Source: Squalus acanthias
Taxonomy: Eukaryota
Direction of reading: 5' to 3'
Assembly: GCA_030390025.1 (NCBI GenBank)
Contig: CM059431.1
Coordinates: forward strand, 152,336,001-152,400,000
DNA: 64,000 bases
Every line of letters starts with the position of its first letter. Position 1 is the stretch's first letter. Shown here piece after piece: positions 13,300-59,172 of the stretch. The position numbers and the translations under genes were made by a program. Below the pieces are notes generated by a model. That model was not told the origin of the DNA and made no database searches. It worked only from the letters and a program-made list of their open reading frames with translations.

Positions 13300-16200
13300 T
13301 CAGTGGGTTTCACTTAACCTGGCAGGGAGATGGGCACCATCATGTAGGAGTAGAATAGAGCAATAAGGTGCATAAAATATTGCGTGTGTTGGAGAAGATA
13401 TTGTACGGGAGGCGGAAGTAACCATATTAGATAATAGCAGACTAAGAAATACTAGAAAAAATTCAAAAAATATTTTTGCATGCATGTACGTAAACGCACA
13501 AGCTGCGATGAATAAGTTTGGTGAGCTTTATGCAGAATTAGTCCTGTGGCAATATGATGTTGTGTCAATAATGGAAACGTGGCTTAACAACGGCGAGGAC
13601 AGGACGCTTAACATTCAAGGGTGCACGGTGTTCAGAAAAGATAGGGAAGGAAAAAAGGAGGTGGGGTGGCAGTGCTGATTAAGGAAGAATTTGTAGTGGT
13701 GGAAAGGGAGGATGTTTCTGAGGCGACAAGGACAGAATCCATTTTGTTAGAGTTGAGGAGCAACAAGGGTATGATCACGCTAATGGGGTATTCTGCAGGC
13801 CTCCAAATCTTGAGAGGAAGGTAGAGGAGCAATACTGCAGGTAAATCGCTGAGATATGCAAGAGCTATAGAGTGGTCATATTGGGCAACTTTAATTGCCA
13901 ACATATCGATTGGGATAATGCTCGGGTACAGGGAAATGTGGGGGAGGAATTTCTGAAATGTGTTCAGGAGATTTTCCTTGACCAGTATGTGTTTGGTCCA
14001 ACTAGGGAGGAGGCATTGCTGGATCTGGTGCTGCGGAATGAGGTGAGCCAGGTCGACCAAGTGACTGTGGGAGACCACTTGGATCCGATTGATTATCATA
14101 TCATAAGATTTAGATTAGCAATGGAACGGAGCAAGGAACAATCCAGATTGGAACTTCTAAAGTGGATTTGAGCTAACTTTAATGGTATGTGAAAAGTTCT
14201 AACCAGGGTAAGGCTGACAGGAAAATCTATAAGGGAACAATGGGTTAACTTTAAGGAGCATTTGTTCCAAATACAGGCTAGGTACATTCAAACAAGAGGG
14301 AAGGGTAAGGGAAGCAAAGCAATGGCTCCTTGGATGACGAGGGAGATAGAGAAGATGATGAATCAAAAAAAGAGGTTTTATGATGCATGTCAGGTGGATT
14401 CTTCAAGGAGGAAAGAGACCAAATAAAATTACTTCAGAGGGGAAGTGAAGATGAAAGTAAGATTGTCACAGAGAGAATATGAGAATAGAATAGCGGTTAA
14501 CATAAAATGGAGCCCAACAATCTTCTCCTGGCATGTAAATAGTAAGTGGGTAGGAAAAGGCGGGGTAGGGCCTATTAGATTCAAAGAAGGCGATATATGC
14601 TTAGAGGCGCAGGACAAGGCTAGAATACTCAGTGAGTACTTTGTATCGGTGTTTACTAAGGAGGTGGATTTTGACACAATATCGGTAGAAGTGGTAAAGT
14701 TATAAGCAATGGAAGGGCTGCGAATTGATAGACAGGATTTACTAGAAAGGCTGGGTATATTTATAGTGGAAAAGTCACCTGGTCCAGATAGTTTGCAACC
14801 CAGGTTGCTACGGGAATTGGGGGAGGAGATAGCGGAAGGTCTCGCCATAATTTTCCAGTCTTCCCTCGATGCAGGGGATGTGCCTCAGGATTGGTAAGTG
14901 GCAAATGTGACACCATTGTTCAAGAAAGCGTGTAAGTAAAATTCGAGTAACTAAAGGCCGGTCAGTTTAACACCAGTGGTGGGAAAAGATTTAGAATCAA
15001 TAATCAAGAAAAAAATTAACAGGCACTTACATAGAACATAGAACAAAGAACAGTACAGCACAGTACAGGCCCTTCGGCCCTCGATGTTGTGCCGAGCATT
15101 GTCCGAGACCAAGATCAAGCTATCACACTCCCTATCACTCTGGTGTGCTCCATGTGCTTATCCAATAATCGCTTGAAAGTTCCTAAAGTGTCCGACTCCA
15201 CTATCACAGCAGGCAGTCCATTCCACACCCCAACCACTCTCTGAGTAAAGAATCTCCCTCGGACATCCCTTCTATATCTCCCCCCATGCAGCTTATAGTT
15301 ATGCCCCCTTGTAACAGCTGCCTCTACCCGAGGAAATAGTCTCTGAACATCCACTCTATCTATCCCCCTCATCATCTTATAAACCTCTATTAAGTCGCCT
15401 CTCATCCTCCTCCGCTCTAAAGAGAAAAGCCCCAACTCCCTCAATCTTTCCTCATAAGACCTCCCCCCCAAACCAGGCAGCATCCTGGTTAATCTCCTTT
15501 GCACTCTTTCCAATGCTTCCACGTCCTTCCTATAGTGAGGTGACCAGAACTGCACACAATATTCCAAATGTGGTCTCACCAAGGTTCTGTACAGTTGCAG
15601 CATAACCTCACGGTTCTTAAACTCAAACCCTCTGTTAATAAACGCCAACACACCATAGGCCTTCTTTACTGCTCTATCCACTTGAGTGGCATCCTTCAGA
15701 GATCTGTGTATATGAACCCCCAGATCCCTCTGTTCCTCCACGTTCCTCAGAACCCTGCCGTTGACCCTGTAATCCTTATTCAAATTTGCCCTACCAAAAT
15801 GAATCACCTCGCACTTATCAGGGTTAAATTCCATCTGCCTTTTTTCGGCCCAGCTCTGCATCCTATCAATGTCTCTTTGCAGCCTACAACAGCCCTCCAC
15901 CTCATCCACTGCTCCACCAATCTTTGTGTCATCAGCAAATTTACTGATCCACCCTTCAGTCCCCTCCTCCAAGTCATCGATAAAAATCACAAACAGCAGA
16001 GGACCCAGCACCGACCCCTGTGGCACACCGCTGGTAACTGGTCTCCAGTCCGAAAATGTTCCATCCACCACCACCCTCTGCCTTCTATGAGATAGCCAGT
16101 TACTTCTCCAATCGGCCAAATTTCCCTCTATCCCACAACTCCTTACTTTCTTCATGAGCCGACCATGGGGAACCTTATCAAACGCCTTACTAAAATCCAT

Positions 16201-17145
16201 GTATACGACATCAACCGCTCTACCTTCATCCACACACTTAGTTACCTCCTCAAAGAATTCAATCAAATTTGTTAGGCAAGACTTACCCTTCACGAATCCG
16301 TGTTGACTATCCCTGATTAAGTTGCCCCTTTCCAAATGGTCATAAATCCTATCCCTCAGGACCTTTTCCATTATCTTACCAACCACCGAAGTAAGACTAA
16401 CCGGCCTATAATTACCAGGGTCATTCCTATTTCCTTTCTTGAAGAGAGGAACAACATTCGCCACTCTCCAGTCCTCTGGCACCATTCCCGTGGACAGTGA
16501 GGACCCAAAGATCAAAGCCAGAGGCTCTGCAATCTCCTCCCTTGCCTCCCAAAGAATCCTAGGATATATCCCATCTGGCCCAGGGGACTTATCGACCCTC
16601 AGGTTCTTCAAAATTGCTGAAACATCTTCCCTCAGAACATCTACCACCTCCAGCCTATCCACCTTTATCACACTCTCATCCTCAAGAACATGGCCCCTCT
16701 CCTCGGTGAACACTGACGAAAAGTATTCATTCATCACCTCTCCTATCTCTTCTGACTCCATGCACAAGTTCCCACTACTGTCCTTGACCGGCCCTACCCT
16801 CACCCTGGTCATTCTTTTATTTCTCACATAAGAGTAAAAGGCCTTGGGGTTTTTCTTGATCCGACCCGCCAAGGACTTCTCATGCCCCCTCCTAGTTCTC
16901 CTAAGCTCTTTTTTTAGCTCATTCCTTGCTACCTTGTACCCCTCAATCGACCCAACTGAACCTTGTTTTCTGATCACTTGGAGAGGTTTAAGTACATTAA
17001 GAAGTGCAAACACGGATTTGTAAAATGCTGATCGTGTTTGACTAATCTAATTGAATTTTTAAATGAAGTAACAGAGAGGATTGATGAAGGGAATGCATTG
17101 AATGTTGTCTACATAGATTTTCAGAAGGCGTTTGACAATGTACCA
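13300..17145 (+). mobile_element. Old CR1 LINE ORF2, split by a younger CR1 at 15029-16974
   Basis: APE motifs (MYVNA..., METWL, ALLDLVL) and KSPGPD.L.PRLLREL; resumes at 16975 and continues toward DFQKAFD; the uninterrupted paralog is at about 40500-42400. Confidence 0.82.
15029..16974 (-). mobile_element. Young 5'-truncated CR1 LINE with an intact RT reading frame
   Basis: Stop-free frame with NYRPVSL, QHGF, DFSKAFD, GVPQGSVLGP and FADD; (ttctatg)n-type tail at 15029-15050; flanked by the direct repeat CACTT (15024-15028, 16975-16979); no APE domain. Confidence 0.95.
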
Positions 17146-17445: not shown

Positions 17446-18374
17446 TTAGGATAGGAAACTCGGGTTTGATCTTCCTATTTTCTTAACCAAGTTCCGAATC
17501 AATGTCCAGGGAGATTTCACTAATCTCACCAGCTCTTCCCTGAATTTGGTTTGGGTCGCTGCATAAATGCACGTGTTAGTACAGGAGCTCAAATACATGA
17601 GCATAAATCCGGTTGCAGATGCGATGTATGCAGGAGATGTATAATCGATTCGGTCATGAATGACCAGGGAGTTAATTAAATAACTAACGATAGATGTCAG
17701 CCACAACACTATAAAACTGCCCGTTACACTGAACAGTAAAATGATGGATTTCCTCCTGTTCACCATCTCTGGATCGCTCTGATTCTCACTGCTGTGTCCC
17801 CGGAGTCGCCTGCGGGCTCTACTGGCCACTAAAATACGTCTGACTGTCAAAAAATTAAACAGAAATATCAAAGCGAAAGGAAGCCATGCAATTAAAAAAC
17901 TTTCTAACCAGATGAATGCTGTACCAGCAGACGTGGTAAAAAAGCCCATTTTCAAGCGGCAACCCCAGTGAATATTGTTAATTATTCGTTCAGTTTCATA
18001 TGCAAACGAATAGGGGATATTGTCCAAACAGAGCAGAACAGAGACCGTTGTTAAGACGGCGGCCGCAGTTCTGACTGTGCAATATTTCATTTTAAACTTC
18101 TCACAACTTATCGCGACATAGCGGTCGAATGTGAAGGTGACGGTAAACCACACGGACATATCGAGGACAGCAGCATTCAAGTATATAAGCAACCTACAGA
18201 CGGCAGTGAAGTTGAGGAATGAATGTGGAAAGTGATATGTAAAAACGCGGTACAGCAACACATTGATGATCATGACCAGTAGATCTGCTGTAGCCATGGC
18301 CACCATGTAGACCGAGATACCTTTGGAAAGACCGCAGTTTCCTCCGGAGAGAATCACGATTGTCAGTAGGTTCG
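17446..18374 (-). CDS. GPR139/GPR142-like class A GPCR, coding exon 2
   Basis: Acceptor ctctttcttacag|CG; ANLLTIVIL (TM1), MATADLL (TM2), FTFDRYVAI (DRY), WLPFALI, SCTNTCIY (TM7); joins exon 1 in phase 1 to give 332 aa. Confidence 0.9.
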
Positions 18375-19272
18375 CTGTAAGAAAGAGGCACAAGCGGTCA
18401 GTAACGGGCACAATCGGATAAATCTCACACCATATTGTGGGGAAAAGTTCAGATGTGTCCCTGTACAGGCGGATTTTTATTTATATAGGCGATCGTTCAC
18501 GAAACGATTTTAAAAATAAACATTGAACACTCAATATAGAGGGACTGAAATTCCGCCGCCTTTCCCTGCAGACTTCAGACAGCCATCGTCAAATATGAAA
18601 TATAATTTCGCAGCAATTACTGCAAAGATATAAATTCAAACGAAACATACAGTTGAGAGAACATCATTGAATTTAGGTCGAAACTCTTCGCTTTTTCTAT
18701 GTACAATCGCCCTGGAGTGGGGTGGAGGACGGGCTTCGGGGGTGGGGGAGTGTGGGGGGGGGGGGGGGGAGTGGGGAGCGGTGGGGACTGGGAACTGCTC
18801 GATAACAGAGCAGGAGCTTGTGGAGACGCGAAGGTTCTTTGCAGCCGAGGGGAGTGGAGCAGCTCCCTGAGCGGCAACTGTTGCTCAAAGTATCTTTCAA
18901 AGTCCCCTGTTGGTTGGAGGTGGCTGCAGTTCGAGCAATTATCAACGAAAAATAAGCAGGGTACAAGTGTAAAACTGATGTGATTACTATCCACAAAAAG
19001 CAACACAGCCTGTACTGATCTCTATATTGTTGGAGGGGCCGGGATAGTCAGCTTCGCCCTCCCTCAGTAAAGGGAGGAAAGGCGAGCTTCCGGCACACAT
19101 GAGCTACCGACCAGCCTCACCAGCCGCGTGGACTGGTTCGATTCCCACTGAAATTCACCAACTTATCCCAATGGATAAGTGAATCTACAATGAGGACATT
19201 CTGGGAATCATTACATAATCATTAACACTGAGATAGTCAACAGCCATTAGACAACATGATTCACTGACTTAC

Positions 19273-19342
19273 CGGGAATGCCAAAGGCTGCGAGAGCAGG
19301 ATAGTAAATGATGCTGACCATTTGAATTGTTGGCAGTAACAT
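19273..19342 (-). CDS. GPR139/GPR142-like GPCR, coding exon 1
   Basis: ATG at 19342 reads MLLPTIQMVSIIYYPALAAFGIP plus G, followed by donor gtaagt; 70 nt; YY...G.PAN.LT matches the TM1 pattern of the GPR139 family. Confidence 0.88.
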
Positions 19343-19754: not shown

Positions 19755-20700
19755 GGAGTTGACCCGAGTCTAACCTTACTGGTGGTGACGCAACTGTAAC
19801 CTCACTGGTGGTGACCCTACTCTAACATTACTGGTGGTGACTCTACTCAAACCTTACTGGTGGTGACCCTACTTTAACATTACTGGTAGTGAAGCTACTC
19901 TAAACTTAGTGGTGGTGACTCTACTCTCACCTTACTGGTGGTGACCCTACTTTAACATGGTGACTGTACTCTAACATTACTGGTGGTGAACCTGCTCTTA
20001 ACTAAGTGGTGGTGACTCTACACTAACATTACTGGTGGTGACACTACTATAACATTACTGATGATGACTGTACTCTAACATTACTGGTGAATACCCTACT
20101 CGAACATAACTGGTGATGACTCTACTCTAAGATTAATAGTGTTGTTCCTACTGCAATATTACTGTTTGTGACTTTGCTCTAACATTACTGTTGGTGACCC
20201 GAATCTAACATTACTGTTGGTGACCCTACATTACAATACTGCGGTGTCCCTACACTATCATTACTGGTGATGACCCTTCTCCAACATTAATGGTGGTGAC
20301 TCTACTCTATCACTACTGGTGGTCATGATGTGGACAAATGTGAGAAGTCGCACAACACCAGGTTATATTCCAACAGTTTTATTTGAAATCACAATCTTTC
20401 GGAGCGCTGCTCCTTCGTCAGGTGAAGTCTGATGAAGGAGCAGCGCTCCGAAAGCTTGTGATTTCAAAAAAAACTGTTGGACTATAACCTGGTGTTGTGC
20501 GACTACTGGTGGTGTCCATCCTCTAACATTATTGTTGGCGACTCTACTCCAACGTTACTGTGGATGACACTACAATATCATTTCTGATGATGACCGTGTT
20601 CCAACGTTACTGTTGGAGTGCTTTATCTGGTTTTATTTTATGTGACTCGACTGTAATGTTTTTCTGGAGATGATCCTTCTCTGGGTGTGCCCGTATTCTA
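19755..20700. repeat. 26-bp minisatellite (ttactggtggtgaccctactctaaca), decaying to the right
   Basis: actggtggtg recurs at 19804, 19830 and 19856; interrupted at about 20325-20504. Confidence 0.9.
20346..20504. mobile_element. Inverted pair of Penelope-type terminal-repeat fragments, each with a minimal hammerhead ribozyme core
   Basis: 76-bp arms (20346-20421 and 20429-20504) around a 7-bp spacer; each arm reads CTGAYGA-aggagc-agc-gctcc-GAAA. Confidence 0.75.
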
Positions 20701-21324
20701 TTAATATGTGTGGTGACTGCACGCTGCATCTACGTTCTGGTGATCGAGCTCCACCATTATTGGTGGCGATTTTGCGATCACATTATTTTTGCCAAGGCTC
20801 GAGGTTTGACTGGGCTTACTTGTATTAATATTTCTATGTTTCTAATCTATCGCATCATCCCTCAGCTCAAAGTTTACACATCTATAAATATGCTAGCTCT
20901 TTTCTGACATCTTTGAACAGCCTAACGTTACCTGTATTAAAGGTTTATGTCTTTATCAACTTGAGTTATGCCATATTTTCAGAATGAATTCCGTTTCCGC
21001 AGATATCTTTAATGCATGTTCCATATCGTCCACTGGTACGGCTTGATTCTGACTTACACCATCATTTATATTTTCAACCTAAGGAAAATATTATATAAAT
21101 AAACCATGCCTTCATCTTCCTCCATCATATCGGCACCGTCACTGCCCAGAAATCCTATCCGTTCTCTCACGGTATTTCCAGCGAAAGTTCCACTTTAGAT
21201 GGGGTTGTAAAAGTGGCCGTAGAGGATCGTCCGCCCATTAAACACCGCGCCCGATTTTACATTGTGATTGTCCAAAGCCATTTTCTGATCCTTCCGCAGT
21301 TGAAAATTATAAAAACACCTCACT

Positions 21325-42520: not shown

Positions 42521-42687
42521 AGAAACGATTATGTACACCCGGGGAAAGCAGCAGACATCAAACACACCGCACAAAATTGAAGAAATATTTCCTGAAACCT
42601 GTTCATTTTCGCAACAATAATCTCGTTTGCGTCCCAACTGAAAGAAGGCCATTCTAAAACGGAACACTATCTGCAATTAAGCTCTAG

Positions 42688-43612
42688 TTAGGATAGGACG
42701 CTCCGGTTTGATCTTCATATTTTGTTATCCAAGTTCCGAATCAATGCCCAGGGAGATTTCACTAATCTCACAAGCTCTTCCCTGAATTTGGTTTGGGTCG
42801 CTGCATAAATGCACGTGTTTGTACAGGAGCTCAAATACATGAGCATATATCCGCTTGCAGCGGCGATGTATGCCTCAGATGTATAATCGGGTCGTTCAGA
42901 AATGATCAGGGAGTTAATCAAATAACTAACGGCAGCTGTCAGCCACAACAATATAAAACTGCTCGATACACTGAACAGTAAAATTATGGATTTCCTCCGG
43001 CTCGCCATCTCTGGATCGCTCTGATTCTCACTGCTGTGACCCCGGAGTCTTCTGCGGGCTCTACTGGCCACTAAAATCCGTCTGACTGTCAAACCATTAA
43101 ACAGTAATATCAAAGCAAAAGGAAGCCCTGCAGTTAAAAGAGTTTCTAACCAAACAAATGCTGTACCTGCAGGCGAGGTGAAAAAGTCAATTTTCAAGCG
43201 GCAACCCAAATATTCTCAATGATTCGTGCAGTTTCATATGCAAACGCATAGGGGATATTGTCCATCGAGAGCAGAACAGTGACCGTTGTTTTGACGGCGG
43301 CCGCAGTTCTCACTGTGCAATATTTCGATTTAACCTTCTCACAACTTATCGCGACATAGCGGTCAAATGTGAAGGTGACGGTAAACCACACGGACATATC
43401 GAGGACAGCAGCATTCAAGTATATAAGTAACCTACAGACGGTAGTGTAGCCGATGAATGAATGTGGAAAGTGATATGTAAAAACGCGGTGCAGCAGTACA
43501 TTGATGATCATGACCAGTAGATCTGCTATTGCCATGGCCACCATGTAGACCGAGATACCTTTGGAAAGACAGCATTTTCCTCTGGAGAGAATCACGATTG
43601 TCAGTAGGTTCG
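42688..43612 (-). pseudogene. GPR139-like GPCR pseudogene, exon 2 only
   Basis: Colinear with 17446-18374; net 4-nt deletion near 43208 splits the ORF; GGA>TGA stop at 42715-42717; acceptor retained; no exon 1 visible. Confidence 0.88.
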
Positions 43613-44086
43613 CTGTAAGAAAGAGGGACAAGCGGTCAGAAACGGGCACACTCGGATAAATCTCACCCCATATTGTGGGGAAATGTGCAGATGTGTACCT
43701 GTGCAGGCGGATTTTTAATTATATAAGAGATCGTTAAGGAAAAAGGGTTTCAAAATAAACATTGAACACTCAATATAGAGGGACTGAAAATCCGCCGCAC
43801 TTCCCTGCAGACTTCAGAAAGCCATCGTCAAAAATTAAATATAATTTCGCAGCACAAACTACAAAGATATGAATGTAAACGAACCATACAGTTGCGAGCA
43901 CATCATTGAATTTAGGTCGAAACTCTGCGCTTTTTCTATGTACAATCTCCCTGAAATGTGGTGGATTAGGGGGTCTGGGGTTGGGGATGGGGGGAACTGG
44001 GAGCTGGTCGGTAACAGAGCGGGAGCTGTTGGAGACGCGAAGGTTCTTTGCAGCCGAGGGGAGTGGAGCAGCTCCCTGAGCGGCAA

Positions 44087-47000
44087 CTGGGCGAGAAGTG
44101 AGTGGAGCAGCGAAGCTATTAAGCCTGCGGTATCCAGATGGCCACTCTTATTACAGTGGCGGACCTGGGCGAGAAGTGAGTGGAGCAGCGAGGCTATAAA
44201 GCCTGTGGTATCCAGGTAGGCCCCTCTTTTACAGCGGCGGACCTGGGCGAGAAGTGAGTGGAGCAGCGAGGCTATAAAGGCTGCGGTATCCAGGCAGGCA
44301 CATCTTTTACAGCGGCGGACATGGGCGAGAAGTGTGTGCAGCAGCGAGGCTATAAAGTCTGCGGTATCCAGGAAGGCCCCTCTTTTACAGCGGTGGATCT
44401 GGGCGAGAAGTGCGTGCAGCAGCGAAGCTATAAAGCCTGCGGTATCCAGGTAGTCCCCTTTTTTAGAGCGGCGGACCTGGGCGAGAAGTGAGTGGAGCAG
44501 CGAGGCTATAAAGCCTGCGGTATCCAGGTAGGCCCCTCTTTTACAGTGGCGGACCTGGGCGAGAAGTGAGTGGAGCAGCGAAGCTATAAAGTCTGCGGTA
44601 TCCAGGTAGGCCCCTCTTTTACAGCGGCGGATCTGGGCGAGAATTGAGTGGAGCAGCGAGGCTTTAAAGCCTGCGGTATCCAGGTAGGCCCCTCATTTAC
44701 AGCGGCGGACCTGGGCGAGAACTGTTTGGAGCAGCGAGGCTATAAAGCCTGCGGTATCCAGGTAGGGCCCTCTTTTACAACGGCGGACCTGGGCGAGAAG
44801 TGAGTAGAGCAGCGAGGCTATAAAACCTGCGGTATCCAGGTAGGCCCCTCTTTTACAGCGGCAGACCTGGGCGAGAAGTGAGTGGAGCAGCAAGGCTATA
44901 AAGCCTGCGGTATCCAGGTAGGCCCCTCTTTTACAGCGGCGGACCTGGGCGAGAATTGAGTGGAGCAGCGAGGCTAAAAAGCCTGCGGTATCCAGGTCTG
45001 CCCCTCTTTTACAGCGGTGGAGCTGGGCGAGAAGTGAGTGAAGCTGCGAGGCTATAAACCCTGCGGTATCCAGGTAGGCCCCTCTTTTACAGCGGCGGAC
45101 GTGCGCGAGTAGTGAGTGTAGCAGCGAGGCTGTAAAACCTGCGGTATCCAGGTAGGCCCCTCTTTTACAGCGGCGGACCTGGGCGAGAAGTGAGTGGAGC
45201 AGCGAGGCTATAAAGCCTGCGGTATCCAGGTAAGGCCTCTCTTTTACAGCGGCGGACCTGGGCGAGAAATGTTTTGAGCAGCGAGGCTATAAAGCCTGCG
45301 GTATCCAGGTAGGCCCCTCTTTTACAGCGGCGGACCTGGGCGAGAAGTGAGTGGAGCAGCGAGGCTATAAAGCCTGCGGTATCCAGGTAGGCCCCTCCTT
45401 TACAGCGGCGGACCTGGGCGAGAAGTGTGTGCAGCAGCGAGGCTATAAAGCCTGCGGTATCCAGGTAGGACCCTCGTTTACAGCGGCGGACCTGGGCGAG
45501 AAGTGAGTGGAGCAGCGAGGCTATAAAGCCTGCGGTATCCAGGTAGGCCCCTCTTTTACAGCGGCGGACCTGGGCGAGAAGTGATTGGAGCAGCGAGGCT
45601 ATAAAGCCTGCGGTATCCAGGTAGGCCCCTCTTTTACAGCGGCGGACCTGGTCGAGAAGTGAGTGTAGCAGCGAGGCTATAAAGCCTGCGGTATCCAGGT
45701 AGGCCCCTCTTTTACAACGGCGGAACTGGGCGAGAAGTGAGTGGAGCAGCGAGGCTATAAAGCATGCAGTATCCAGGTAGGCCCCTCCTTTACAGCGGCG
45801 GACCTGGGCGAGAAGTGTGTGCAGCAGCGAGGCTATAAAGCCTGCGGTATCCAGGTAGGCCCCTCGTTTACAGCGTCGGACCTGGGCGAGAAGTGAGTGG
45901 AGCAGCGAGGGTATAAAGCCTCCGGTATCCAGGTAGGCCCCTCTTTTACAGCGGCGGACCTGGGCGAGAATTGAGTGGAGCAGCGAGGCTATAAAGCCTG
46001 CGGTACCCAGGTAGGCCCCTCTTTTACAGCGGCGGACCTGGGCGAGAAGTGTTTGGAGCAGCGAGGCTATAAAGCCTGCGGTATCCAGGTAGGCCCCTCT
46101 TTTACAGTGGCGGATCTGGGCGAGAAGTGAGTGGTGCAGCGAGGCGAAAAAGCCTGCGGTATCCAGGTAGGTTCCTCTTTAACAGCGGCGGACCTGGGCG
46201 AGAATTGAGTGGAGCAGCGAGGCTATAAAGCCTGCGGTATCCAGATAGGCCCCTCTTTTACAGCGGCGGACCTGGGCGAGAAGTGAGTGTAGCAGCAGAC
46301 CTATAAAGCCTGCGGTATCCAGGTAGGCCCCTCTTTCACAGCGGCGGACCTGGGCGAGAAGTGAGTGGAGCAGCGAGGCTATAAAGCCTGCTGTATCCAC
46401 GGCTGTCCCTCTTTTACAGCGGTGGAGCTGGGCGAGAAGTGAGTGAAGCTCCGAGGCTATAAACCCTGCGGTATCCAGGTAGGCCCCTCTTTTACAGCGG
46501 CGGACGTGGGCGAGTAGTGAGTGGAGCAGCGAGGCTATAAAGCATGCAGTATCCAGGTAGGCCCCTCCTTTACAGCGGCGGACCTGGGCGAGAAGTGTGT
46601 GCAGCAGCGAGGCTGTAAAGCCTGCGGTATCCAGGAAGGCCCCTCTTTTACAGCGGTGGACCTGGGCGAGAAGTGAGTGGAGCAGCGAGGCTATAAAGCC
46701 TGCGGTATCCAGGTAGGCCCCTCTTTTACAGCGGCGGACCTGGGCGAGAAGTGAGTGAAGCATGGAGGCTATAAAGCCTGCGGTATCCATGTAGGCCCCT
46801 CTTTTACAGCGGCGGACCTGGGCGAGAATTGAGTGGAGCAGCGAGGCTATAAAGCCTACGGTATCCAGGTAGGCCCCTCTTTTACAGCGGCGGACCTGGG
46901 CGAGAATTGAGTGGAGCAGCGAGGCTAAAAAGCCTGCGGTATCCAGGTAGGCCCCTCATTTACAGCGGCGGACCTGGGCGAGAAGTGTGTGCAGCAGCGA

Positions 47001-50000
47001 GGCTATAAAGCCTGCGGTATCCAGGTAGGCCCCTCGTTTACAGGGGCGGACCTGGGCGAGAAGTGAGTGGAGCAGCGAGGCTATAAAGCCTGCGGTATCC
47101 AGGTAGGCCCTTCTTTTACAGCGGCGGATCTGGGCAAGAAGTGAGTGGTGCAGCGAGGCTATAAAGCCTGCGGTACCCAGGTAGGCCCCTCTTTTACAGC
47201 GGCGGACCTGGACGAGAAGAGTTTGGAGCAGCGAGGCTATAAAGCCTGCGGTATCCATGTAGGCCCCTCTTTTACAGCGGCGGACCTGGGCGAGAAGTGA
47301 GTGGAGCAGCAGACCTATAAAGCCTGCGGTATCCAGGTAGGCCACTCTTTTACAGTGGCGGACCTGGGTGAGAAGTTAGTTGAGCAGCGAGGCTATAAAG
47401 CCTGCGGTATCCAGGTAGGCCCCTCTTTTACAGCGGCGGACCTGGGCGAGAAGTGAGTGGAGCAGCGAGGCTATAAAGCCTGCTGTATCCACGGCTGTCC
47501 CTCTTTTACAGCGGTGGAGCTGGGCGAGAAGTGTGTGCAGCAGCGAGGCTGTAAAGCCTGCGGTATCCAGGAAGGCCCTCTTTTACAGCAGTGGACCTGG
47601 GCGAGAAGTGAGTGGAGCTGCGAGGCTATAAAGCCTGCGGTATCCAGGTAGGCCCCTCTTTTACAGCGTTGGAGCTGGGCGAGAAGTCAGTGAAGCTGCG
47701 AGCCTATAAACCCTGCGGTATCCATGTAGGCCCCTCTTTTACAGCGGCAGACGTGGGCGAGTAGTGAGTGGAGCAGCGAGGCTATAAAACCTGCGGTATC
47801 CAGGTGGGCCCCTCATTTACAGCGGCAGACCTGGGCGAGAAATGAGTGGAGCAGCGAGGCTATAAAGCCTGCGGTATCCAGGTAGGCCCCTCTTTTACAG
47901 CGGCGGACCTGGGCGAGAATTGAGTGGAACAGCGAGGCTAAAAAGACTGCGGTATCCAGGTAAGCCCCTCTTTTACAGCGGCAGCCCTGGGCGAGAAGTG
48001 TGTGCAGCAGCGAGGCTATAAAGCCTGCGGTATCCAGGTAGGCCCCTCGTTTACAGTGGCGGAACTGGGCGAGAAGTGATTTGAGCAGCGAGGCTATAAA
48101 GCCTGCGGTATCCAGGTAGGCCCCTCTTTTACAGCGGCGGACCTGGGCGAGAAGTGAGTGGAGCAGCGAGGCTATAAAGCCTGCGGTATCCAGGTAGGCC
48201 CCTCTTTTACAGCGGCGGACCTGGGCGAGAAGTGTGTGGAGCAGCGAGGCTATAAATCCTGCGGTATCCAGGTAGGCCCCTCTTTTACAGTGGCGGACCT
48301 GGGCGAGAAGTGAGTGGAGCAGCGAGGCTATAAAACCTGCGGTATCCAGGTAGGCCCCTCTTTTACAGCGGCAGATCTGGGCGAGAAATGTTTTGAGCAG
48401 CGAGGCTATAAAGACTGCGGTATCCAGGTAGGCCCCTCTTTTACAGCGGCGGACCTGGGCGAGAATTGAGTGGAGCAGCGAGGCTATAAAGCCTGCGGTA
48501 TCCAGGTAGGCCCCTCTTTTACAGCGGCGGACCTGGGCGAGAAGTGTTTGGAGCAGCGAGGCTATAAAGCCTGCGGTATCCAGGTAGGCCCCTCTTTTAC
48601 AGCGGCGGATCTGGGCGAGAAGTGAGTGGAGCAGCGAGGCTATAAAGCCTGCGGTATCCAGGAAGGCCCCTCTTTTACAGCGGCGGACCTGGGCGAGAAT
48701 TGAGTGGAGCAGCGAGGCTAAAAAGCCTGCGGTATCCAGGTAAGCCCCTCTTTTACAGCGGCGGGCCCGAGCGACAAGTGTTTTGAGCAGCGAGGCTATA
48801 AAGACTGCGGTATCCAGGTAGGCCCCTCTTTTACAACGGCGGACCTGGGCGAGAAGTGAGTGGAGCAGCGAGGCGATAAAGCATGCAGTATCCAGGTAGG
48901 CCTCTCCTTTACTGCGGCGGACCTGGGCGAGAAGTGTGTGCAGCAGCGAGGCTATAAAGCCTGCGCTATCCAGGTAGGCCCCTCATTTACAGCGGCGGAT
49001 CTGGGCGAGAAGTGAGTGGTGCAGCGAGGCTATAAAGCCTGCGGTATCCAGGTAGGTCCCTCTTTTACAGCGGCGGACCTGGGCGAGAATTGAGTGGAGC
49101 AGCGAGGCTATAAAGCCTGCGGTATCCAGGAAGGCACCTCTTTTACAGCGGCGGACCTGGGCGAGCAGTGTTTGGAGCTGCGAGGCTATAAAGCCTGCGG
49201 TATCCAGGTAGGCCCCTCATTTACAGCGGCGGACCTGGGCGAGAAGTGAGTGGAGCAGCGAGGCTATAAAGCCTGCGGTATCCAGGTAGGCCCCTCTTTT
49301 ACAGCGGCGGACCTGGGCGAGAAGTGAGTGTAGCAGCGAGGCTATAAAGCCTGCGGTATCCAGGTAGGCCCTCTTTTACAGCGGCGGACCTGGGCGAGAA
49401 GTGAGTGGAGCAGCGAGGCTATAAAGCCTGCGGTATCCAGGTAGGCCCCTCTTTTACAGCGGCGGACCTGGGCGAGAAGTGTTTTGAGCAGCGAGGCTAT
49501 AAAGCCTGCGGTATCCAGGTAGGCCCTCTTTTACAACGGCGGACCTGGGCGAGAAGTGAGTGGAGCAGCGAGGCTATAAAGCATGCAGTATCCAGGTAGG
49601 CCCCTCCTTTACAGCGGCGGACCTGGGCGAGAAGTGTGTGCAGCAGCGAGGCTATAAAGCCTGCGGTATCCAGGTAGGCCCCTCGTTTACAGCGGCGGAC
49701 CTGGGCGAGAAGTGAGTGGAGCAGCGAGGTTATAAAGCCTGCGGTATCCAGGTAGGCCCCTCTTTTACAGCGGCGGACCTGGGCGAGAATTGAGTGGAGC
49801 AGCGAGGCTATAAAGCCTGCGGTACCCAGGTAGGCCCCTTGTTTACAGCGGCGGACCTGGGCGAGATGTGTTTGGAGCAGCGAGGCTATAAAGCTTGCGG
49901 TATCCAGTTAGGCCACTCTTTTACAGTGGCGGACCTTGGCGAGAAGTGAGTGGAGCTGCGAGGCTATAAAGCCTGCGGTACCCAGGTAGGTCCCTCTTTT

Positions 50001-53000
50001 ACAACGGCGGAGCTGGGCGAGAAGTGAGTGGAGCAGCGAGGCTATAAAGCATGCGGTATCCAGGTAGGCCCATCTTTTACAGCGGCGTACCTGGGCGAGA
50101 AGTGTGTGGAGCAGCGAGGCTATAAATCCTGAGGTATCCAGGTAGGCCACTCTTTTACAGCGGCGGACCTGGGCGAGAAGTGAGTGTAGCAGCGAGGCTA
50201 TAAAGCCTGCGGTATCCAGGTAGGTCCCTCTTTTACAGTGGCGGACCTGGGTGAGAAGTGAGTGGAGCAGCGAGGCTATAAAGCCTGCGGTATCGAGGTA
50301 GGCCCCTCTTTTACAGCGGCGGACCTGGGCGAGAAGTGAGTGGAGCAGCGAGGCTATAAAGCCTGCGGTATCGAGGTCTGCCCCTCATTTACAGCGGTGG
50401 AGCTGGGCGAGAAGTGAGTGAAGCTGCGAGGCTATAAACCCTGCGGTATCCATGTAGGCCCCTCTTTTACAGCGGCAGACGTGGGCGAGTAGTGAGTGGA
50501 GCAGCGAGTCCATAAAAGCTGCGGTATCCAGGTGGGCCCCTCATTTACAGCGGCAGACCTGGGCGAGAAGTGAGTGGAGCAGCGAGGCTATAAAGTCTGC
50601 GGTATCCAGGTAGGCCCCTCTTTTACAGCGGCGGACCTGGGCGAGAAGTGAGTGGAGCAGCGAGGCTATAAAGCCTGCGGTATCCAGGTAGGCCCCTCTT
50701 TTACAGCGGCGGACCTGGGCGAGAAGTGAGTGTAGCAGCGAGGCTATAAAGCCTGCGGTATCCAGGTAGGCCCCTCTTTTACAGCGGCGGACCTGGGCGA
50801 GAATTGAGTGGAACAGCGAGGCTAAAAAGACTGCGGTATCCAGGTAAGCCCCTCTTTTACAGCGGCAGCCCTGGGCGAGAAGTGTGTGCAGCAGCGAGGC
50901 TATAAAGCCTGCGGTATCCAGGTAGGCCCCACGTTTACAGTGGCGGAACTGGGCGAGAAGTGATTTGAGCAGCGAGGCTATAAAGCCTGCGGTATCCAGG
51001 TAGGCCCCTCTTTTACAGCGGCGGACCTGGGCGAGAAGTGAGTGGAGCAGCGAGGCTATAAAGCCTGCGGTATCCAGGTAGGCCCCTCTTTTACAGCGGC
51101 GGACCTGGGCGAGAAGTGAGTGTAGCAGCGAGGCTATAAAGCCTGCGGTATCCAGGTAGGCCCCTCTTTTACAGCGGCGGACCTGGGCGAGAAGTGATTT
51201 GAGCAGCGAGGCTATAAAGCCTGCGGTACCCAGGTAGGCCCCTCTTTTACAGCGGCGGACCTGGGCGAGAAGTGAGTGGAGCAGCGAGGCTATAAAGCCT
51301 GCGGTATCCAGGTAGGCCCCTCTTTTACAGCGGCGGACCTGGGCGAGAAGTGTGTGGAGCAGCGAGGCTATAAATCCTGCGGTATCCAGGTAGGCCCCCT
51401 TTTACAGCGGCGGACCTGGGCGAGAATTGAGTGGAGCAGCGAGGCTAAAAAGCTTGCGGTATCCAGGTAGGCCCCTCTTTTACAGCGGCGGACCTGGGCG
51501 AGAAGTGAGTGGAGCAGCGAGGCTATAAAGCCTGCGGTATCCAGGTAGGCCCCTCTTTTACAGCGGCGGACCTGGGCGAGAAGTGAGTGGAGCAGCGAGG
51601 CTATAAAGCCTGCGGTATCCAGGTAGGCCCCTCTTTTACAGCGGCGGAGCTGGGCGAGAAGTGAGTGGAGCAGCGAGGCTATAAAGCTTGCGGTATCCAG
51701 GTAGGCCCCTCCTTTACAGCGGCGGACCTGGGCGAGAAGTGAGTGGAGCAGCGAGGCTATAAAGCCTGCGGTATCCAGGTAGGCCCCTCTTTTACAGCGG
51801 CGGACCTGGGCGAGAAGTGAGTGGAGCAGCGAGGCTATAAAGCCTGCGGTATCCAGGTAGGCCCCTCTTTTACAGCGGCGGAGCTGGGCGAGAAGTGAGT
51901 GAAGCAGCGAGGCTATAAACACTGCGGTATCCAGGTAGGCCCCTCTTTTACAGCGGCGGACCTGGGCGAGAAGTGTGTGCAGCAGCGAGGCTATAAAGCC
52001 TGCGGTATCCAGGTAGGCCCCTCTTTTACAGCGGCGGACCTGGGCGAGAAGTGAGTGGAGCAGCGAGGCTATAAAGCCTGCGGTATCCAGGTAGGCCCCT
52101 CTTTTACAGCGGCGGACCTGGGCGAGAAGTGAGTGTAGCAGCGAGGCTATAAAGCCTGCGGTATCCAGGTAGGCCCCTCTTTTACAGTGGCGGACCTGGG
52201 TGAGAAGTGAGTGGAGCAGCGAGGCTATAAAGCCTGCGTTATCCAGGTAGGCCCCTCTTTTACAGCGCCGGACCTGGGCGAGAATTGAGTGGAGCAGCGA
52301 GGCTAAAAAGCCTGCGGTATCCAGGTCTGCTCCTCTTTTACAGCGGTGGAGCTGGGCGAGAAGTGAGTGAAGCTGCGAGGCTATAAACCCTGCGGTATCC
52401 ATGTAGGCCCCTCTTTTACAGCGGCAGACGTGGGCGAGTCGTGAGTGGAGCAGCGAGGCTATAAAACTTGCGGTATCCAGGTGGGCCCCTCATTTACAGC
52501 GGCAGACCTGGGCGAGAAGTGAGTGGAGCAGCGAGGCTATAAAGCCTGCGGTATCCAGGTAGGCCCCTGTTTTACAGCGGCGGACCTGGGCGAGAATTGA
52601 GTGGAACAGCGAGGCTAAAAAGACTGCGGTATCCAGGTAAGCCCCGCTTTTACAGCGGCAGCCCTGGGCGAGAAGTGTGTGCAGCAGCGAGGCTATAAAG
52701 CCTGCGGTATCCAGGTAGGCCCCTCGTTTACAGCGGCGGAACTGGGCGAGAAGTGATTGGAGCAGCGAGGCTATAAAGCCTGCGGTATCCAGGTAGGCCC
52801 CTCTTTTACAGCGGCGGACCTGGGCGAGAAGTGAGTGGAGCAGCGAGGCTATAAAGCCTGCGGTATCCAGGTAGGCCCCTCTTTTACAGCGGCGGACCTG
52901 GGCGAGAAGTGTGTGGAGCAGCGAGGCTATAAAGCCTGCGGTATCCAGGTAGGCCCCTCTTTTACAGCGGCGGACCTGGGCGAGAAGTGAGTGGAGCAGC

Positions 53001-56000
53001 GAGGCTATAAAGCCTGCGGTATCCAGGTAGGCCCCTCTTTTACAGCGGCGGACCTGGGCGAGAAGTGAGTGGAGCAGCGAGGCTATAAAGCCTGCGGTAT
53101 CCAGGTAGGCCCCTCTTTTACAGCGGCGGACCTGGGCGAGAAGTGAGTGGAGCAGCGAGGCTATAAAGCCTGCGGTATCCAGGTAGGCCCCTCTTTTACA
53201 GCGGCGGACCTGGGCGAGAATTGAGTGGAGCAGCGAGGCTAAAAAGCTTGCGGTATCCAGGTAGGCCCGTCTTTTACAGCCGCGGACCTGGGCGAGAAGT
53301 GAGTGTAGCAGCGAGGCTATAAAGCCTGCGGTATCCAGGTAGGCCACTCTTTTACAGCGGCGGACGTGGGCGAGTAGTGAGTGTAGCAGCGAGGCTATAA
53401 AGCATGCAGTTTCCAGGTAGGCCCATCCTTTACAGCGGCGGACCTGGGCGAGAAGTGTGTGCAGCAGCGAGGCTGTAAAGACTGCGGTATCCAGGTAGGC
53501 CCCTCTTTTACAGCGGCGGACCTGGGCGAGAAGTGAGTGAAGCATGGACGGTATAAAGCCTGCGGTATTCAGGTAGGCCCCTCTTTTACAGCGGCGGACC
53601 TGGGCGAGAATTGAGTGGAGCAGCGAGGCTATAAAGCCTGCGGTATCCAGGAAGGCCCCTCTTTTACAGCGGTGGACCTGGGCGAGAAGTGAGTGGAGCA
53701 GCGAGGCTATAAAGCCTGTGGTATCCAGGTAGGCCCCTCTTTTACAGCGGCGGACCTGGGCGAGAAGTGAGTGTAGCAGCGAGGCTATAAAGCCTGCGTT
53801 ATCCAGGTAGGCCCCTCTTTTACAGTGGCGGACCTGGGTGAGAAGTGAGTGGAGCAGCGAGGCTATAAAGCCTGCGTTATCCAGGTAGGCCCCTCTTTTA
53901 CAGCGGCGGACCTGGGCGAGAAGTGAGTGGAGCAGCGAGGCTATAAAGCCTGCGGTATCGAGGTCTGCCCCTCATTTACAGCGGTGGAGCTGGGCGAGAA
54001 GTGAGTGAAGCAGCGAGGCTATAAACCCTGCGGTATCCAGGTAGGCCCCTCTTTTACAGCGGCAGACGTGGGCGAGTAGTGAGTGGAGCAGCGAGGCTAT
54101 AAAACTTGCGGTATCCAGGTGGGCCCCTCATTTACAGCGGCAGACCTGGGCGAGAAGTGAGTGGAGCAGCGAGGCTATAAAGCCTGCGGTATCCAGGTAG
54201 GCCCCTCTTTTACAGCGGCGGACCTGGGCGAGAATTGAGTGGAACAGCGAGGCTAAAAAGACTGCGGTATCCAGGTAAGCCCCTCTTTTACAGCGGCAGC
54301 CCTGGGCGAGAAGTGTGTGCAGCAGCGAGGCTATAAAGCCTGCGGTATCCAGGTAGGCCCCTCGTTTACAGTGGCGGAACTGGGCGAGAAGTGATTTGAG
54401 CAGCGAGGCTATAAAGCCTGCGGTATCCAGGTAGGCCCCTCTTTTACAGCGGCGGACCTGGGCGAGAAGTGAGTGGAGCAGCGAGGCTATAAAGCCTGCG
54501 GTATCCAGGTAGGCCCCTCTTTTACAGCGGCGGACCTCGGCGAGAAGTGTGTGGAGCAGCGAGGCTATAAATCCTGCGGTATCCAGGTAGGCCCCTCTTT
54601 TACAGCGGCGGACCTGGGCGAGAAGTGAGTGGAGCAGCGAGGCTATAAAGCCTGCGGTATCGAGGTCTGCCCCTCTTTTACAGCGGTGGAGCTGGGCGAG
54701 AAGTGAGTGAAGCAGCGAGGCTATAAACCCTGCGGTATCCAGGTAGGCCCCTCTTTTACAGCGGCAGACCTGGGCGAGAAGTGAGTGGAGCAGCGAGGCT
54801 ATAAAGCCTGCGGTATCCAGGTAGGCCCCTCTTTTACAGCGGCGGACCTGGGCGAGAATTGAGTGGAGCAGCGAGGCTATAAAGCCTGCGGTATCCAGGT
54901 AGGCCCCTCTTTTACAGCGGCGGACCTGGGCGAGAAGTGAGTGTAGCAGCGAGGCTATAAAGCCTGCGGTATCCAGGTAGGCCCCTCTTTTACAGCGGCG
55001 GACCTGGGCGAGAAGTGAGTGGAGCAGCGAGGCTATAAAGCCTGCGGTATCCAGGTAGGCCCCTCTTTTACAGCGGCGGACCTGGGCGAGAAGTGAGTGG
55101 AGCAGCGAGGCTATAAAGCCTGCGGTATCCAGGTAGGCCCCTCTTTTACAGCGGCGGACCTGGGCGAGAAGTGAGTGAGCAGCGAGGCTATAAAGCCTGC
55201 GGTATCCAGGTAGGCCCCTCTTTTACAGCGGCGGACCTGGGCGAGAAGTGAGTGGAGCAGCGAGGCTATAAAGCCTGCGGTATCCAGGTAGGCCCCTCTT
55301 TTACAGCGGCGGACCTGGGCGAGAAGTGAGTGAGCAGCGAGGCTATAAAGCCTGCGGTATCCAGGTAGGCCCCTCTTTTACAGCGGCGGACCTGGGCGAG
55401 AAGTGAGTGGAGCAGCGAGGCTATAAAGCCTGCGGTATCCAGGTAGGCCCCTCTTTTACAGCGGCGGACCTGGGCGAGAAGTGAGTGGAGCAGCGAGGCT
55501 ATAAAGCCTGCGGTATCCAGGTAGGCCCCTCTTTTACAGCGGCGGACCTGGGCGAGAAGTGAGTGGAGCAGCGAGGCTATAAAGCCTGCGGTATCCAGGT
55601 AGGCCCCTCTTTTACAGCGGCGGACCTGGGCGAGAAGTGAGTGAGCAGCGAGGCTATAAAGCCTGCGGTATCCAGGTAGGCCCCTCTTTTACAGCGGCGG
55701 ACCTGGGCGAGAATTGAGTGGAGCAGCAAGGCTATAAAGCCTCCGGTATCCAGGTAGGCCCTCCACGTTTACAGCGGCGGACCTGGGCGAGAAGTGAGTG
55801 GAGCAGCGAGGCTATAAAGCCTGCGGTATCCAGGTAGGCCCCTCTTTTACAGCGGCGGACCTGGGCGAGAAGTGAGTGTAGCAGCGAGGCTATAAAGCCT
55901 GCGGTATCCAGGTAGGCCCCTCTTTTACAGCGGCGGACCTGGGCGAGAAGTGAGTGGAGCAGCGAGGCTATAAAGCCTGCGGTATCCAGGTAGGCCCCTC

Positions 56001-59000
56001 TTTTACAGCGGCGGACCTGGGCGAGAAGTGAGTGAGCAGCGAGGCTATAAAGCCTGCGGTATCCAGGTAGGCCCCTCTTTTACAGCGGCGGACCTGGGCG
56101 AGAAGTGAGTGGAGCAGCGAGGCTATAAAGCCTGCGGTATCCAGGTAGGCCCCTCTTTTACAGCGGCGGACCTGGGCGAGAAGTGAGTGGAGCAGCGAGG
56201 CTATAAAGCCTGCGGTATCCAGGTAGGCCCCTCTTTTACAGTGGCGGACCTGGGTGAGAAGTGAGTGGAGCAGCGAGGCTATAAAGCCTGCGGTATCCAG
56301 GTAGGCCCCTCTTTTACAGCGGCGGACCTGGGCGAGAAGTGAGTGGAGCAGCGAGGCTATAAAGCCTGCGGTATCGAGGTCTGCCCCTCATTTACAGCGG
56401 TGGAGCTGGGCGAGAAGTGAGTGAAGCAGCGAGGCTATAAACCCTGCGGTATCCAGGTAGGCCCCTCTTTTACAGCAGCGGACGTGGGCGAGTAGTGAGT
56501 GGAGCAGCGAGGCTATAAAACCTGCGGTATCCAGGTAGGCCCCTCTTTTACAGCGGCAGACCTGGGCGAGAAGTGAGTGGAGCAGCAAGGCTATAAAGCC
56601 TGCGGTATCCAGGTAGGCCCCTCTTTTACAGCGCCGGACCTGGGCGAGAATTGAGTGGAGCAGCGAGGCTAAAAAGCCTGCGGTATCCAGGTCTGCCCCT
56701 CTTTTACAGCAGTGGAGCTGGGCGAGAAGTGAGTGAAGCTGCGAGGCTATAAACCCTGCGGTATCCAGGTAGGCCCCTCTTTTACAGCGGCGGACCTGGG
56801 CGAGAAGTGAGTGGAGCAGCGAGGCTATAAAGCCTGCGGTATCCAGGTAGGCCCCTCTTTTACAGCGGCGGACCTGGGCGAGAAGTGAGTGGAGCAGCGA
56901 GGCTATAAAGCCTGCGGTATCCAGGTAGGCCCCTCTTTTACAGCGGCGGACCTGGGCGAGAAGTGAGTGGAGCAGCGAGGCTATAAAGCCTGCGGTATCC
57001 AGGTAGGCCCCTCTTTTACAGCGGCGGACCTGGGCGAGAAGTGTGTGGAGCAGCGAGGCTATAAAGCCTGCGGTATCCAGGTAGGCCCCTCTTTTACAGC
57101 GGCGGACCTGGGCGAGAAGTGATTTGAGCAGCGAGGCTATAAAGCCTGCGGTATCCAGGTAGGCCCCTCTTTTACAGCGGCGGACCTGGGCGAGAAGTGA
57201 GTGGAGCAGCGAGGCTATAAAGCCTGCGGTATCCAGGTAGGCCCCTCTTTTACAGCGGCGGACCTGGGCGAGAAGTGAGTGGAGCAGCGAGGCTATAAAG
57301 CCTGCGGTATCCAGGTAGGCCCCTCTTTTACAGCGGCGGACCTGGGCGAGAAGTGAGTGGAGCAGCGAGGCTATAAAGCCTGCGGTATCCAGGTAGGCCC
57401 CTCTTTTACAGCGGCGGACCTGGGCGAGAAGTGAGTGGAGCAGCGAGGCTATAAAGCCTGCGGTATCCAGGTAGGCCCCTCTTTTACAGCGGCGGACCTG
57501 GGCGAGAAGTGAGTGGAGCAGCGAGGCTATAAAGCCTGCGGTATCCAGGTAGGCCCCTCTTTTACAGCGGCGGACCTGGGCGAGAAGTGAGTGGAGCAGC
57601 GAGGCTATAAAGCCTGCGGTATCCAGGTAGGCCCCTCTTTTACAGCGGCGGACCTGGGCGAGAAGTGAGTGGAGCAGCGAGGCTATAAAGCCTGCGGTAT
57701 CCAGGTAGGCCCCTCTTTTACAGCGGCGGACCTGGGCGAGAAGTGTGTGGAGCAGCGAGGCTATAAAGCCTGCGGTATCCAGGTAGGCCCCTCTTTTACA
57801 GCGGCGGACCTGGGCGAGAAGTGAGTGGAGCAGCGAGGCTATAAAGCCTGCGGTAACCAGGTAGGCCCCTCTTTTACAGCGGCGGACCTGGGCGAGAAGT
57901 GAGTGGAGCAGCGAGGCTATAAAGCCTGCGGTATCCAGGTAGGCCCCTCTTTTACAGCGGCGGACCTGGGCGAGAAGTGAGTGGAGCAGCGAGGCTATAA
58001 AGCCTGCGGTATCCAGGTATGCCCCTCTTTTACAGCGGTGGAGCTGGGCGAGAAGTGAGTGAAGCAGCGAGGCTATAAAGCCTGCGGTATCCAGGTAGGC
58101 CCCTCTTTTACAGCGGCGGACCTGGGCGAGAAGTGAGTGGAGCAGCGAGGCTATAAAGCCTGCGGTATCCAGGTAGGCCCCTCTTTTACAGCGGCGGACC
58201 TGGGCGAGAATTGAGTGGAGCAGCGAGGCTAAAAAGCCTGCGGTATCCAGGTAGGCCCCTCTTTTACAGCGGCGGACCTGGGCGAGAAGTGAGTGTAGCA
58301 GCGAGGCTATAAAGCCTGCGGTATCCAGGTAGGCCCCTCTTTTACAGCGGCGGACCTGGGCGAGAAGTGTGTGGAGCAGCGAGGCTATAAAGCCTGCGGT
58401 ATCCAGGTAGGCCCCTCTTTTACAGCGGCGGACCTGGGCGAGAAGTGAGTGGAGCAGCGAGGCTATAAAGCCTGCGGTATCCAGGTAGGTCCCTCTTTTA
58501 CAGCGGCGGACCTGGGCGAGAATTGAGTGGAGCAGCGAGGCTATAAAGCCTGCGGTATCCAGGTAGGCCCCTCTTTTACAGCGGCGGACCTGGGCGAGAA
58601 TTGAGTGGAGCAGCGAGGCTATAAAGCCTGCGGTATCCAGGTAGGCCCCTCTTTTACAGCGGCGGACCTGGGCGAGAAGTGTGTGAGCAGCGAGGCTATA
58701 AAGCCTGCGGTATCCAGGTAGGCCCCTCTTTTACAGCGGCGGACCTGGGCGAGAAGTGAGTGGAGCAGCGAGGCTATAAAGCCTGCGGTATCCAGGTAGG
58801 CCCCTCTTTTACAGCGGCGGACCTGGGCGAGAAGTGTGTGGAGCAGCGAGGCTATAAAGCCTGCGGTATCCAGGTAGGCCCCTCTTTTACAGCGGCGGAC
58901 CTGGGCGAGAAGTGAGTGGAGCAGCGAGGCTATAAAGCCTGCGGTATCCAGGTAGGCCCCTCTTTTACAGCGGCGGACCTGGGCGAGAAGTGAGTGGAGC

Positions 59001-59172
59001 AGCGAGGCTATAAAGCCTGCGGTATCCAGGTAGGCCCCTCTTTTACAGCGGCGGACCTGGGCGAGAAGTGAGTGGAGCAGCGAGGCTATAAAGCCTGCGG
59101 TATCCAGGTAGGCCCCTCTTTTACAGCGGCGGACCTGGGCGAGAAGTGAGTGGAGCAGCGAGGCTATAAAGC
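44087..59172. repeat. 78-bp satellite array, about 193 units, about 60% GC
   Basis: Unit ctgggcgagaagtgagtggagcagcgaggctataaagcctgcggtatccaggtaggcccctcttttacagcggcggac, repeated head to tail up to the gap. Confidence 0.98.

Follow-up and report, generated by a model that had tools for sequence, protein, structure and literature searches.

Penelope-like elements (PLEs) leave insertions of a characteristic anatomy: an inverted, shorter pseudo-LTR adjoins the element, a tail of 31 bp stands on one inverted end and the target is duplicated over 8-10 bp (Arkhipova et al. 2013, PMC3846280). In that paper the head-to-head order is the commonest PLE arrangement and is explained by self-priming, and terminal repeats alone are enough for mobilisation in trans; a later account describes this anatomy as the general one among PLEs (Craig et al. 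2021, PMC8557442). The minimal hammerhead ribozymes (min-HHRs) of these elements form opposite-strand pairs 100-700 bp apart and also occur as thousands of solitary motifs from truncated PLEs; as monomers they do not cleave and as dimers they cleave poorly, according to the survey that defines them (Cervera and de la Pena 2014, PMC4209133). Two supplementary files of that survey contain no shark term; the repeats of the whale shark include Penelope (PMC8455134). The protein of PAc, a Poseidon element of the green anole, cuts and extends both target strands, and the tail lies between two reverse transcriptase (RT) start sites (Frangieh et al. 2024, PMC11167929). The same study adds that the ribozyme was dispensable for insertion in vitro, that RNA reads with an end at the cut were not found and that AT-rich targets are preferred.

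Here we describe a palindrome with two opposed hammerhead cores in 64 kb of Squalus acanthias DNA (the window, to which all positions refer). With insertions of endonuclease-bearing (EN+) PLEs it shares the head-to-head inverted repeat, the one arm that is shorter at its 5' end and the one-sided tail, and its target duplication is 9-12 bp against the published 8-10. It differs from them in that no ORF and no full pseudo-LTR lie between the arms, which have only 76-105 bases each, and in that the tail measures 22 bases (about 47 in other copies of the family) against the published 30-40. With metazoan PLE min-HHRs it has in common the core letters, the unpaired base before stem II and G10.1-C11.1 and, on one arm each, a short stem I (minus arm) and the palindromic positions 15.2-16.2 (plus arm), but its cores lie 7 bases apart, its stem II has 5 bp and each copy lacks one stem. 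Two RT starts bounding the tail together with priming on both strands, as described for PAc, would yield the anatomy of the palindrome. The ORF of PAc begins in stem II, whereas no open reading frame runs through the arms of the palindrome, and the nearest coding relatives that we found have a Cys-rich linker of the Neptune/Nematis type. Non-LTR retrozymes of animals, as portrayed in a preprint (bioRxiv 10.64898/2026.07.22.740005), are likewise ORF-less, derived from a PLE terminal repeat and equipped with a type I hammerhead; they are head-to-tail tandems that permit dimer cleavage, whereas the palindrome is head to head, with its two cores on opposite strands.

We consider it very probable that the palindrome is an old single insertion of an abundant endonuclease-bearing PLE, reduced to two 3' ends set head to head and devoid of an ORF. 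The arrangement has already been described in other animals, and the locus is an ordinary one, one of very many dead stumps.

Anatomy of the insert

The two arms, 20346-20421 and 20429-20504, pair at 72 of their 76 positions, with mismatches at 20368/20482, 20381/20469, 20395/20455 and 20417/20433, and the palindrome folds as RNA with z = -24.85, a stability reached by none of 200 shuffles. With one core on each strand, this agrees with the initial annotation, which had recognised two opposed minimal hammerhead motifs in a palindrome inserted in a minisatellite. The sequence was compared with sequencing contigs, those of four of 19 runs aligning to 20200-21100 at 85% likeness: X1 and X2 (organism A, DNA, two studies), X8 (organism C) and X17 (organism A, guessed to be RNA). 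The features of the locus are as follows.

17446..19342, minus strand: rhodopsin-family receptor gene, with predicted exon 1 at 19273-19342 and predicted exon 2 at 17446-18374 (Pfam 7tm_1, E 2.8e-19; exon 1 and splice sites read from the sequence)
19760..20620, no strand: host 26-bp minisatellite, interrupted by the insert and back in phase after it (unit spacing)
20312..20323, no strand: left copy of the target-site duplication, or 9 bp at 20315-20323 if the three shared bases are assigned to the element (12-mer unique to 20312 and 20502)
20324..20345, minus strand: remnant of the one-sided 3' tail (no right-arm partner; loose-end consensus before 20330 in four of four runs)
20346..20428, minus strand: left arm, the 5'-truncated 3' end of the terminal repeat, beginning 7 bases before the hammerhead core (pairing and loose ends)
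20389..20425, minus strand: minimal type I hammerhead with 4-bp stem I, core and 5-bp stem II, its stem III palindrome broken at 20395 (pattern and fold)
20429..20504, plus strand: right arm, the corresponding end of the terminal repeat, cut short precisely at the first base of the core and lacking the tail (pairing and contigs)
20429..20461, plus strand: minimal hammerhead core with stem II and the stem III palindrome intact, lacking the 5' strand of stem I (pattern and fold)
20502..20513, no strand: right copy of the target-site duplication, its first 3 bases shared with the arm end (12-mer)

The insert is wider than the palindrome: it occupies about 181 bp, from 20324 to 20504, and is flanked on both sides by a target-site duplication of 9 bp, or up to 12 bp, 3 bases being common to the arm end and the target. 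The duplicated 12-mer occurs in the window at 20312-20323 and 20502-20513 only. The units of the minisatellite are spaced by 26 bp throughout, with a single gap of 190 across the palindrome; when these 190 bp (the insert and one duplicate) are removed, the phase is restored, which bears out the insertion, and 86-89 of 104 bases fit the minisatellite (three placements), as against 54/104 and 57/104 for cuts that ignore the duplication. The target site is not AT-rich. The insert is asymmetric, 22 bases (20324-20345) standing on the left arm only, and the arms meet at 20428|20429 with no filler. The seven central bases, 20422-20428, are element sequence of the left arm, since loose ends behind 20428 in all four runs, and before 20429 in X8, supply the same seven bases. 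The 159-bp unit previously delimited here must therefore be redrawn as an asymmetric insert of about 181 bp plus duplicated target, with no separate loop.

A relaxed hammerhead core pattern matched twice in the 64 kb, at 20394-20421 (minus strand) and 20429-20456 (plus strand), where 0.01 matches were expected; two matches were reached in none of 100 shuffles, and the pattern scan found no core in the surrounding 26-bp minisatellite. Each arm has the core CUGANGA...GAAA...UH, the extra base before stem II and G10.1-C11.1. Stem I, of 4-5 bp in min-HHRs, has 4 bp in the minus arm and two wobble pairs only in the plus arm. The self-complementary stem III tetramer (palindromic 15.2-16.2) is kept in the plus arm, as in the majority of the family, and is non-palindromic in the minus arm. 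The defects had been correctly described as a plus copy with palindromic stem III that lacks its stem I arm, and a minus copy with the reverse. Cleavage is predicted at 20393/20392 on the minus arm and at 20457|20458 on the plus arm. An Rfam covariance search, proposed earlier as a check of the hammerheads, did not recover them: no hammerhead family stood among the 9 + 3 matches up to E 10. The top matches were plant miRNA hairpin models, far below gathering scores, and reflect the palindrome only.

The repeat family and its head-to-head joints

Summed contig depth, which is not copy number and includes diverged subfamilies at the 85% threshold, was on average 10,687 times (X1) and 14,273 times (X2) higher in four arm bins than in 17 flank bins. 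In these two runs the six insert bins held 0.4-2.9 million and the 17 right-flank bins 35-308; in X8 the insert held 1.1-9.2 million and the flank almost none. The arms, with a contig depth some 10,000-fold that of the flank, thus belong to an abundant repeat. They represent the 3' end of this interspersed family, which occurs under at least two species labels. The putative RNA run X17 also contains the family sequence; its right flank has no cover, and the run is uninformative on expression. No data set listed for the stretch was labelled as RNA. The family sequence runs on 5' of the centre on both arms, in one direction. Within the window blastn found no further copies. None of the listed contigs spanned the junctions of this insert, so that X1 and X2 give no independent confirmation of it, and a true empty allele was not seen among them. 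Three X1 pieces with 13-18 differences lose their match at 20504/20505 and in this weakly resemble related empty sites. The 26-bp minisatellite (19760-20620) is itself a high-copy dispersed family, with summed depth up to 7e5 (X1) and 1.8e5 (X8) over 20262-20323.

At 20368, 20395 and 20469, 85-100% of the family depth in all four runs agrees with the opposite arm (among the 40 of 140 differences listed). Three of the four mismatches between the arms, that which breaks stem III among them, are therefore private to the palindrome copy. The remaining mismatch lies at the free position N7 and is absent from the 40 of 140 differences listed. The initial annotation had attached a meaning to the complementary defects of the two arms, which finds no support here: the plus arm is simply truncated at the core, and the minus base, 20395, is private to this copy, differing from the family letter in 92-100% of the depth. 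In other copies of the family the one-sided extension is 25 bases longer, about 47 nt (among the 24 of 676 loose ends listed), and the palindrome copy has lost 25 tail bases between two 5-bp direct repeats. As a separate observation, the cleavage-site base 20393 varies in 36-38% of the depth in organism A and almost never in organism C; 20473 is also polymorphic, so that the family comprises several subfamilies.

Among the best-supported 15 of 167 joints, 14 join a left arm to a right arm, no two of them at the same pair of points, and two of these 14 are symmetric within 2 bases. Counted by coordinates, both cores are kept in none of the 14 joints and the first core box in one of the 28 arms, which is an undercount, as one joint holds a variant core in between and near-complete palindromes appear as gapped pieces. 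Three of the 32 listed pieces cross the centre of the palindrome, with 3, 6 and 7 gap letters, and one only has 31 letters on both sides. Palindromes recur in the family, two-core ones included; their centre is variable and the cores are often lost.

Several joints reach a depth of 100-535, where single-copy contigs in X2 stand at about 30, and four of the 14 joints between arms recur in each of the three DNA runs, which carry two organism labels. Such joints above single copy could point to a mobile, non-autonomous mini-element, that is, a preformed head-to-head unit transcribed and then re-inserted whole by a PLE protein acting in trans, and the sufficiency of terminal repeats for trans mobilisation (PMC3846280) speaks for the same reading. 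However, the 14 listed joints all differ and their symmetry is rare, the pieces that cross the centre depart from the locus by their 3, 6 and 7 gap letters, and repetition of the centre of this palindrome was not seen among the pieces listed. Joints can moreover come to be shared when duplicated DNA contains an old insertion, or when joining recurs at the two local palindromes. We thus regard a mobile mini-element as highly unlikely and keep to the reading of a single truncated insertion.

The starts of the arms are not evenly spread. In right-arm coordinates, 13 of the 28 arm starts of the best 15 of 167 joints fall at 20455-20461, around the predicted cut 20457|20458; the cluster is 9 of 24 when four starts are left out at which the alignment may have broken at the private base 20395, with a binomial probability of 8e-4 if starts were uniform and independent, which they are not. 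The arm starts of the stumps might be set by the hammerhead cutting the RNA of the element in vivo, RT running off at the cut, so that tens of thousands of stumps would record the cut. We hold this to be unlikely: (i), a 6-bp local palindrome is centred at 20454|20455, 3 bases from the predicted cut, and a second cluster, of 7 of the 28 starts, lies on another palindrome at 20444|20445 where there is no cut site, so that joining at local palindromes accounts equally for both clusters without cleavage; (ii), the starts scatter 3 bases either way; (iii), the palindrome locus itself is not truncated at the cut; and (iv), the basis is the deepest 15 of 167 joints. If cleavage were nonetheless the cause, the genome would testify, through the start cluster, that a minimal PLE hammerhead is active in vivo, evidence that is called lacking in PMC4209133 and that the RNA reads of PMC11167929 did not show. 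In the literature outside Repbase, Dfam and most subscription journals we found no account of the palindrome family or of truncation at a cleavage site.

Coding relatives of the hammerhead

An exact core-pattern scan found two loci in metagenome contigs (L001 and L002) and no match in viral contigs and genome contigs. The arms match L001 and L002 at 30/33 and 34/39 bases, in the hammerhead only; the stems are the same, and loop II and the cleavage base differ. As the likeness is limited to these 33-39 nt, L001 and L002 belong to another family. These marine metagenome sequences (L001 1-1050 and L002 1-1470) represent one PLE family of an animal, sharing 677 bp at 99.6% identity; their inverted junctions differ, and in both the minimal hammerhead is intact, with a stem I of 5 bp.

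The L002 hammerhead is placed about 750 bp downstream from a frame that combines a Cys-rich linker with motifs of the GIY-YIG type; that of L001 adjoins an RT piece in inverted orientation (RVT_1, E 1.8e-5, below the cut-off). With the L002 frame as protein query, two of 92 candidates were matched, P0002 and P0003, and each of them also aligns with the RT piece of L001 (E 1.7e-14 and 5.9e-34). The two pieces match the same RT and endonuclease proteins, with E from 1e-14 to 1e-37, which indicates that RT and endonuclease are joined in one protein type. P0003 is above the RVT_1 cut-off and had no meaningful match among solved structures; for P0001, Pfam gave no family up to E 0.1. The GIY-YIG assignment is based on a weak match of P0002 (E 0.0086, below the cut-off) and on a reading of the motifs. 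The Cys-rich linker motif is present in L002, P0002 and P0003, all outside the family of the palindrome, and no trace of PLE protein was detected in the 64-kb window (best tblastn E 0.32).

By sequence, then, the hammerhead type is tied to PLEs, but no RT or GIY-YIG frame is tied to the palindrome's own family. The Penelope link drawn in the initial annotation holds for the hammerhead, shared with RT/GIY-YIG contigs, and for the insertion anatomy; it does not extend to an ORF tied to the family of the palindrome.

These data also bear on whether the insert is a MITE-like DNA transposon with long terminal inverted repeats or a fold-back artefact of the assembly. The insert is short, ORF-less and built of inverted arms with a flanking duplication, as a MITE would be, and the length of this duplication is like that of hAT or Mutator transposons. 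However, its ends are asymmetric, with the 22-base tail on one side only, the centres vary so that there is no fixed unit, the hammerhead of the arms is shared with RT and GIY-YIG elements, and other family copies continue 5' of the centre in one direction. A fold-back artefact predicts identical arms and no target duplication, where four mismatches and a duplication of 9-12 bp are observed. Transposon and artefact together retain a negligible probability and are already largely refuted, which leaves the truncated PLE insertion as the preferred explanation.

Folding, the receptor gene and the origin of the palindrome

The insert lies 982 bp from the predicted start codon of the receptor (19342, minus strand), confirming the distance of about 1 kb upstream given before. 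Directly downstream of the receptor, 15115-17046 is a 643-codon stop-free LINE-type reverse transcriptase frame, which we take to be CR1/L2-like, and many similar fragments are scattered across the window. The second exon of the receptor and part of its intron have an 88% identical paralog at 42542-44089, split over two frames and likely a pseudogene. The first exon of this paralog was not found in the window, the copy being cut off upstream by a 78-bp satellite; the likeness ends at 18880/44089, and the window contains no paralogous empty site for the insert. The satellite covers 15 kb (44087-59172; 193 copies of the 78-bp unit, 93% matches) up to a 500-N gap, has two minus-strand frames that are stop-free up to 780 and 493 codons and contains no hammerhead core.

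Could the insert have been co-opted for the receptor 1 kb away, as a regulatory hairpin, a source of dsRNA or siRNA, or a conditional ribozyme, possibly by complementation in a plus/minus dimer? Read-through RNA of either strand would form a near-perfect 76-bp hairpin, the family sequence occurs in the run guessed to be RNA, and the enzyme half of the minus arm with the substrate half of the plus arm could, on paper, give stem I and two stem III pairs. However, in read-through RNA the hammerhead fold is predicted to be 45.5 kcal/mol costlier than the hairpin, stem II has, on either strand, a pairing probability that rounds to 0, and transcription in both directions reaches the antisense arm ahead of the core. 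The suggestion that such a transcript could fold as a long hairpin or as a hammerhead is therefore not supported for read-through RNA. The damage also looks unselected: by chance alone, four differences spread over 152 bases would spare all 22 core letters with a probability of 0.54, so that their absence from the core is no sign of selection, and one of them breaks stem III. To this are added the inactive monomers and poor dimers of min-HHRs described in PMC4209133, and the abundance of the family, from which a copy near a gene is expected. Co-option is thus extremely unlikely. The locus is most likely inert, with both hammerheads, according to the folding model, buried in one 76-bp hairpin of any read-through RNA. 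The initial annotation had placed three options side by side; the inert insertion scar stands, and neither a mobile mini-element nor a dsRNA source for the receptor was shown.

For the single, truncated PLE insertion that we favour, the following course may be proposed. An RT-endonuclease would nick both target strands 9-12 bp apart, and RT would begin at two internal start sites bounding the tail, one per end, so that one product includes the tail and the other begins at the inner start. Both cDNAs would stop after about 80-130 bases and then join at their truncated ends, head to head; fold-back self-priming would also lead to this product. The arms would have been near-identical at first, the four differences and the tail deletion having gathered later, although the deletion may date from the insertion. 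The hammerheads would be passengers of the terminal repeat and would serve, if anything, the RNA of the parent element.

The locus is a clean example of its kind, with a target duplication, a one-sided tail and a filler-free head-to-head junction within 200 bases, and its anatomy fits the two-strand, two-start-site priming seen in vitro for the Poseidon element. The abundance of the family would permit a genome-wide map of such junctions, which would help to understand how PLE inversions form and whether minimal hammerheads cut in vivo.
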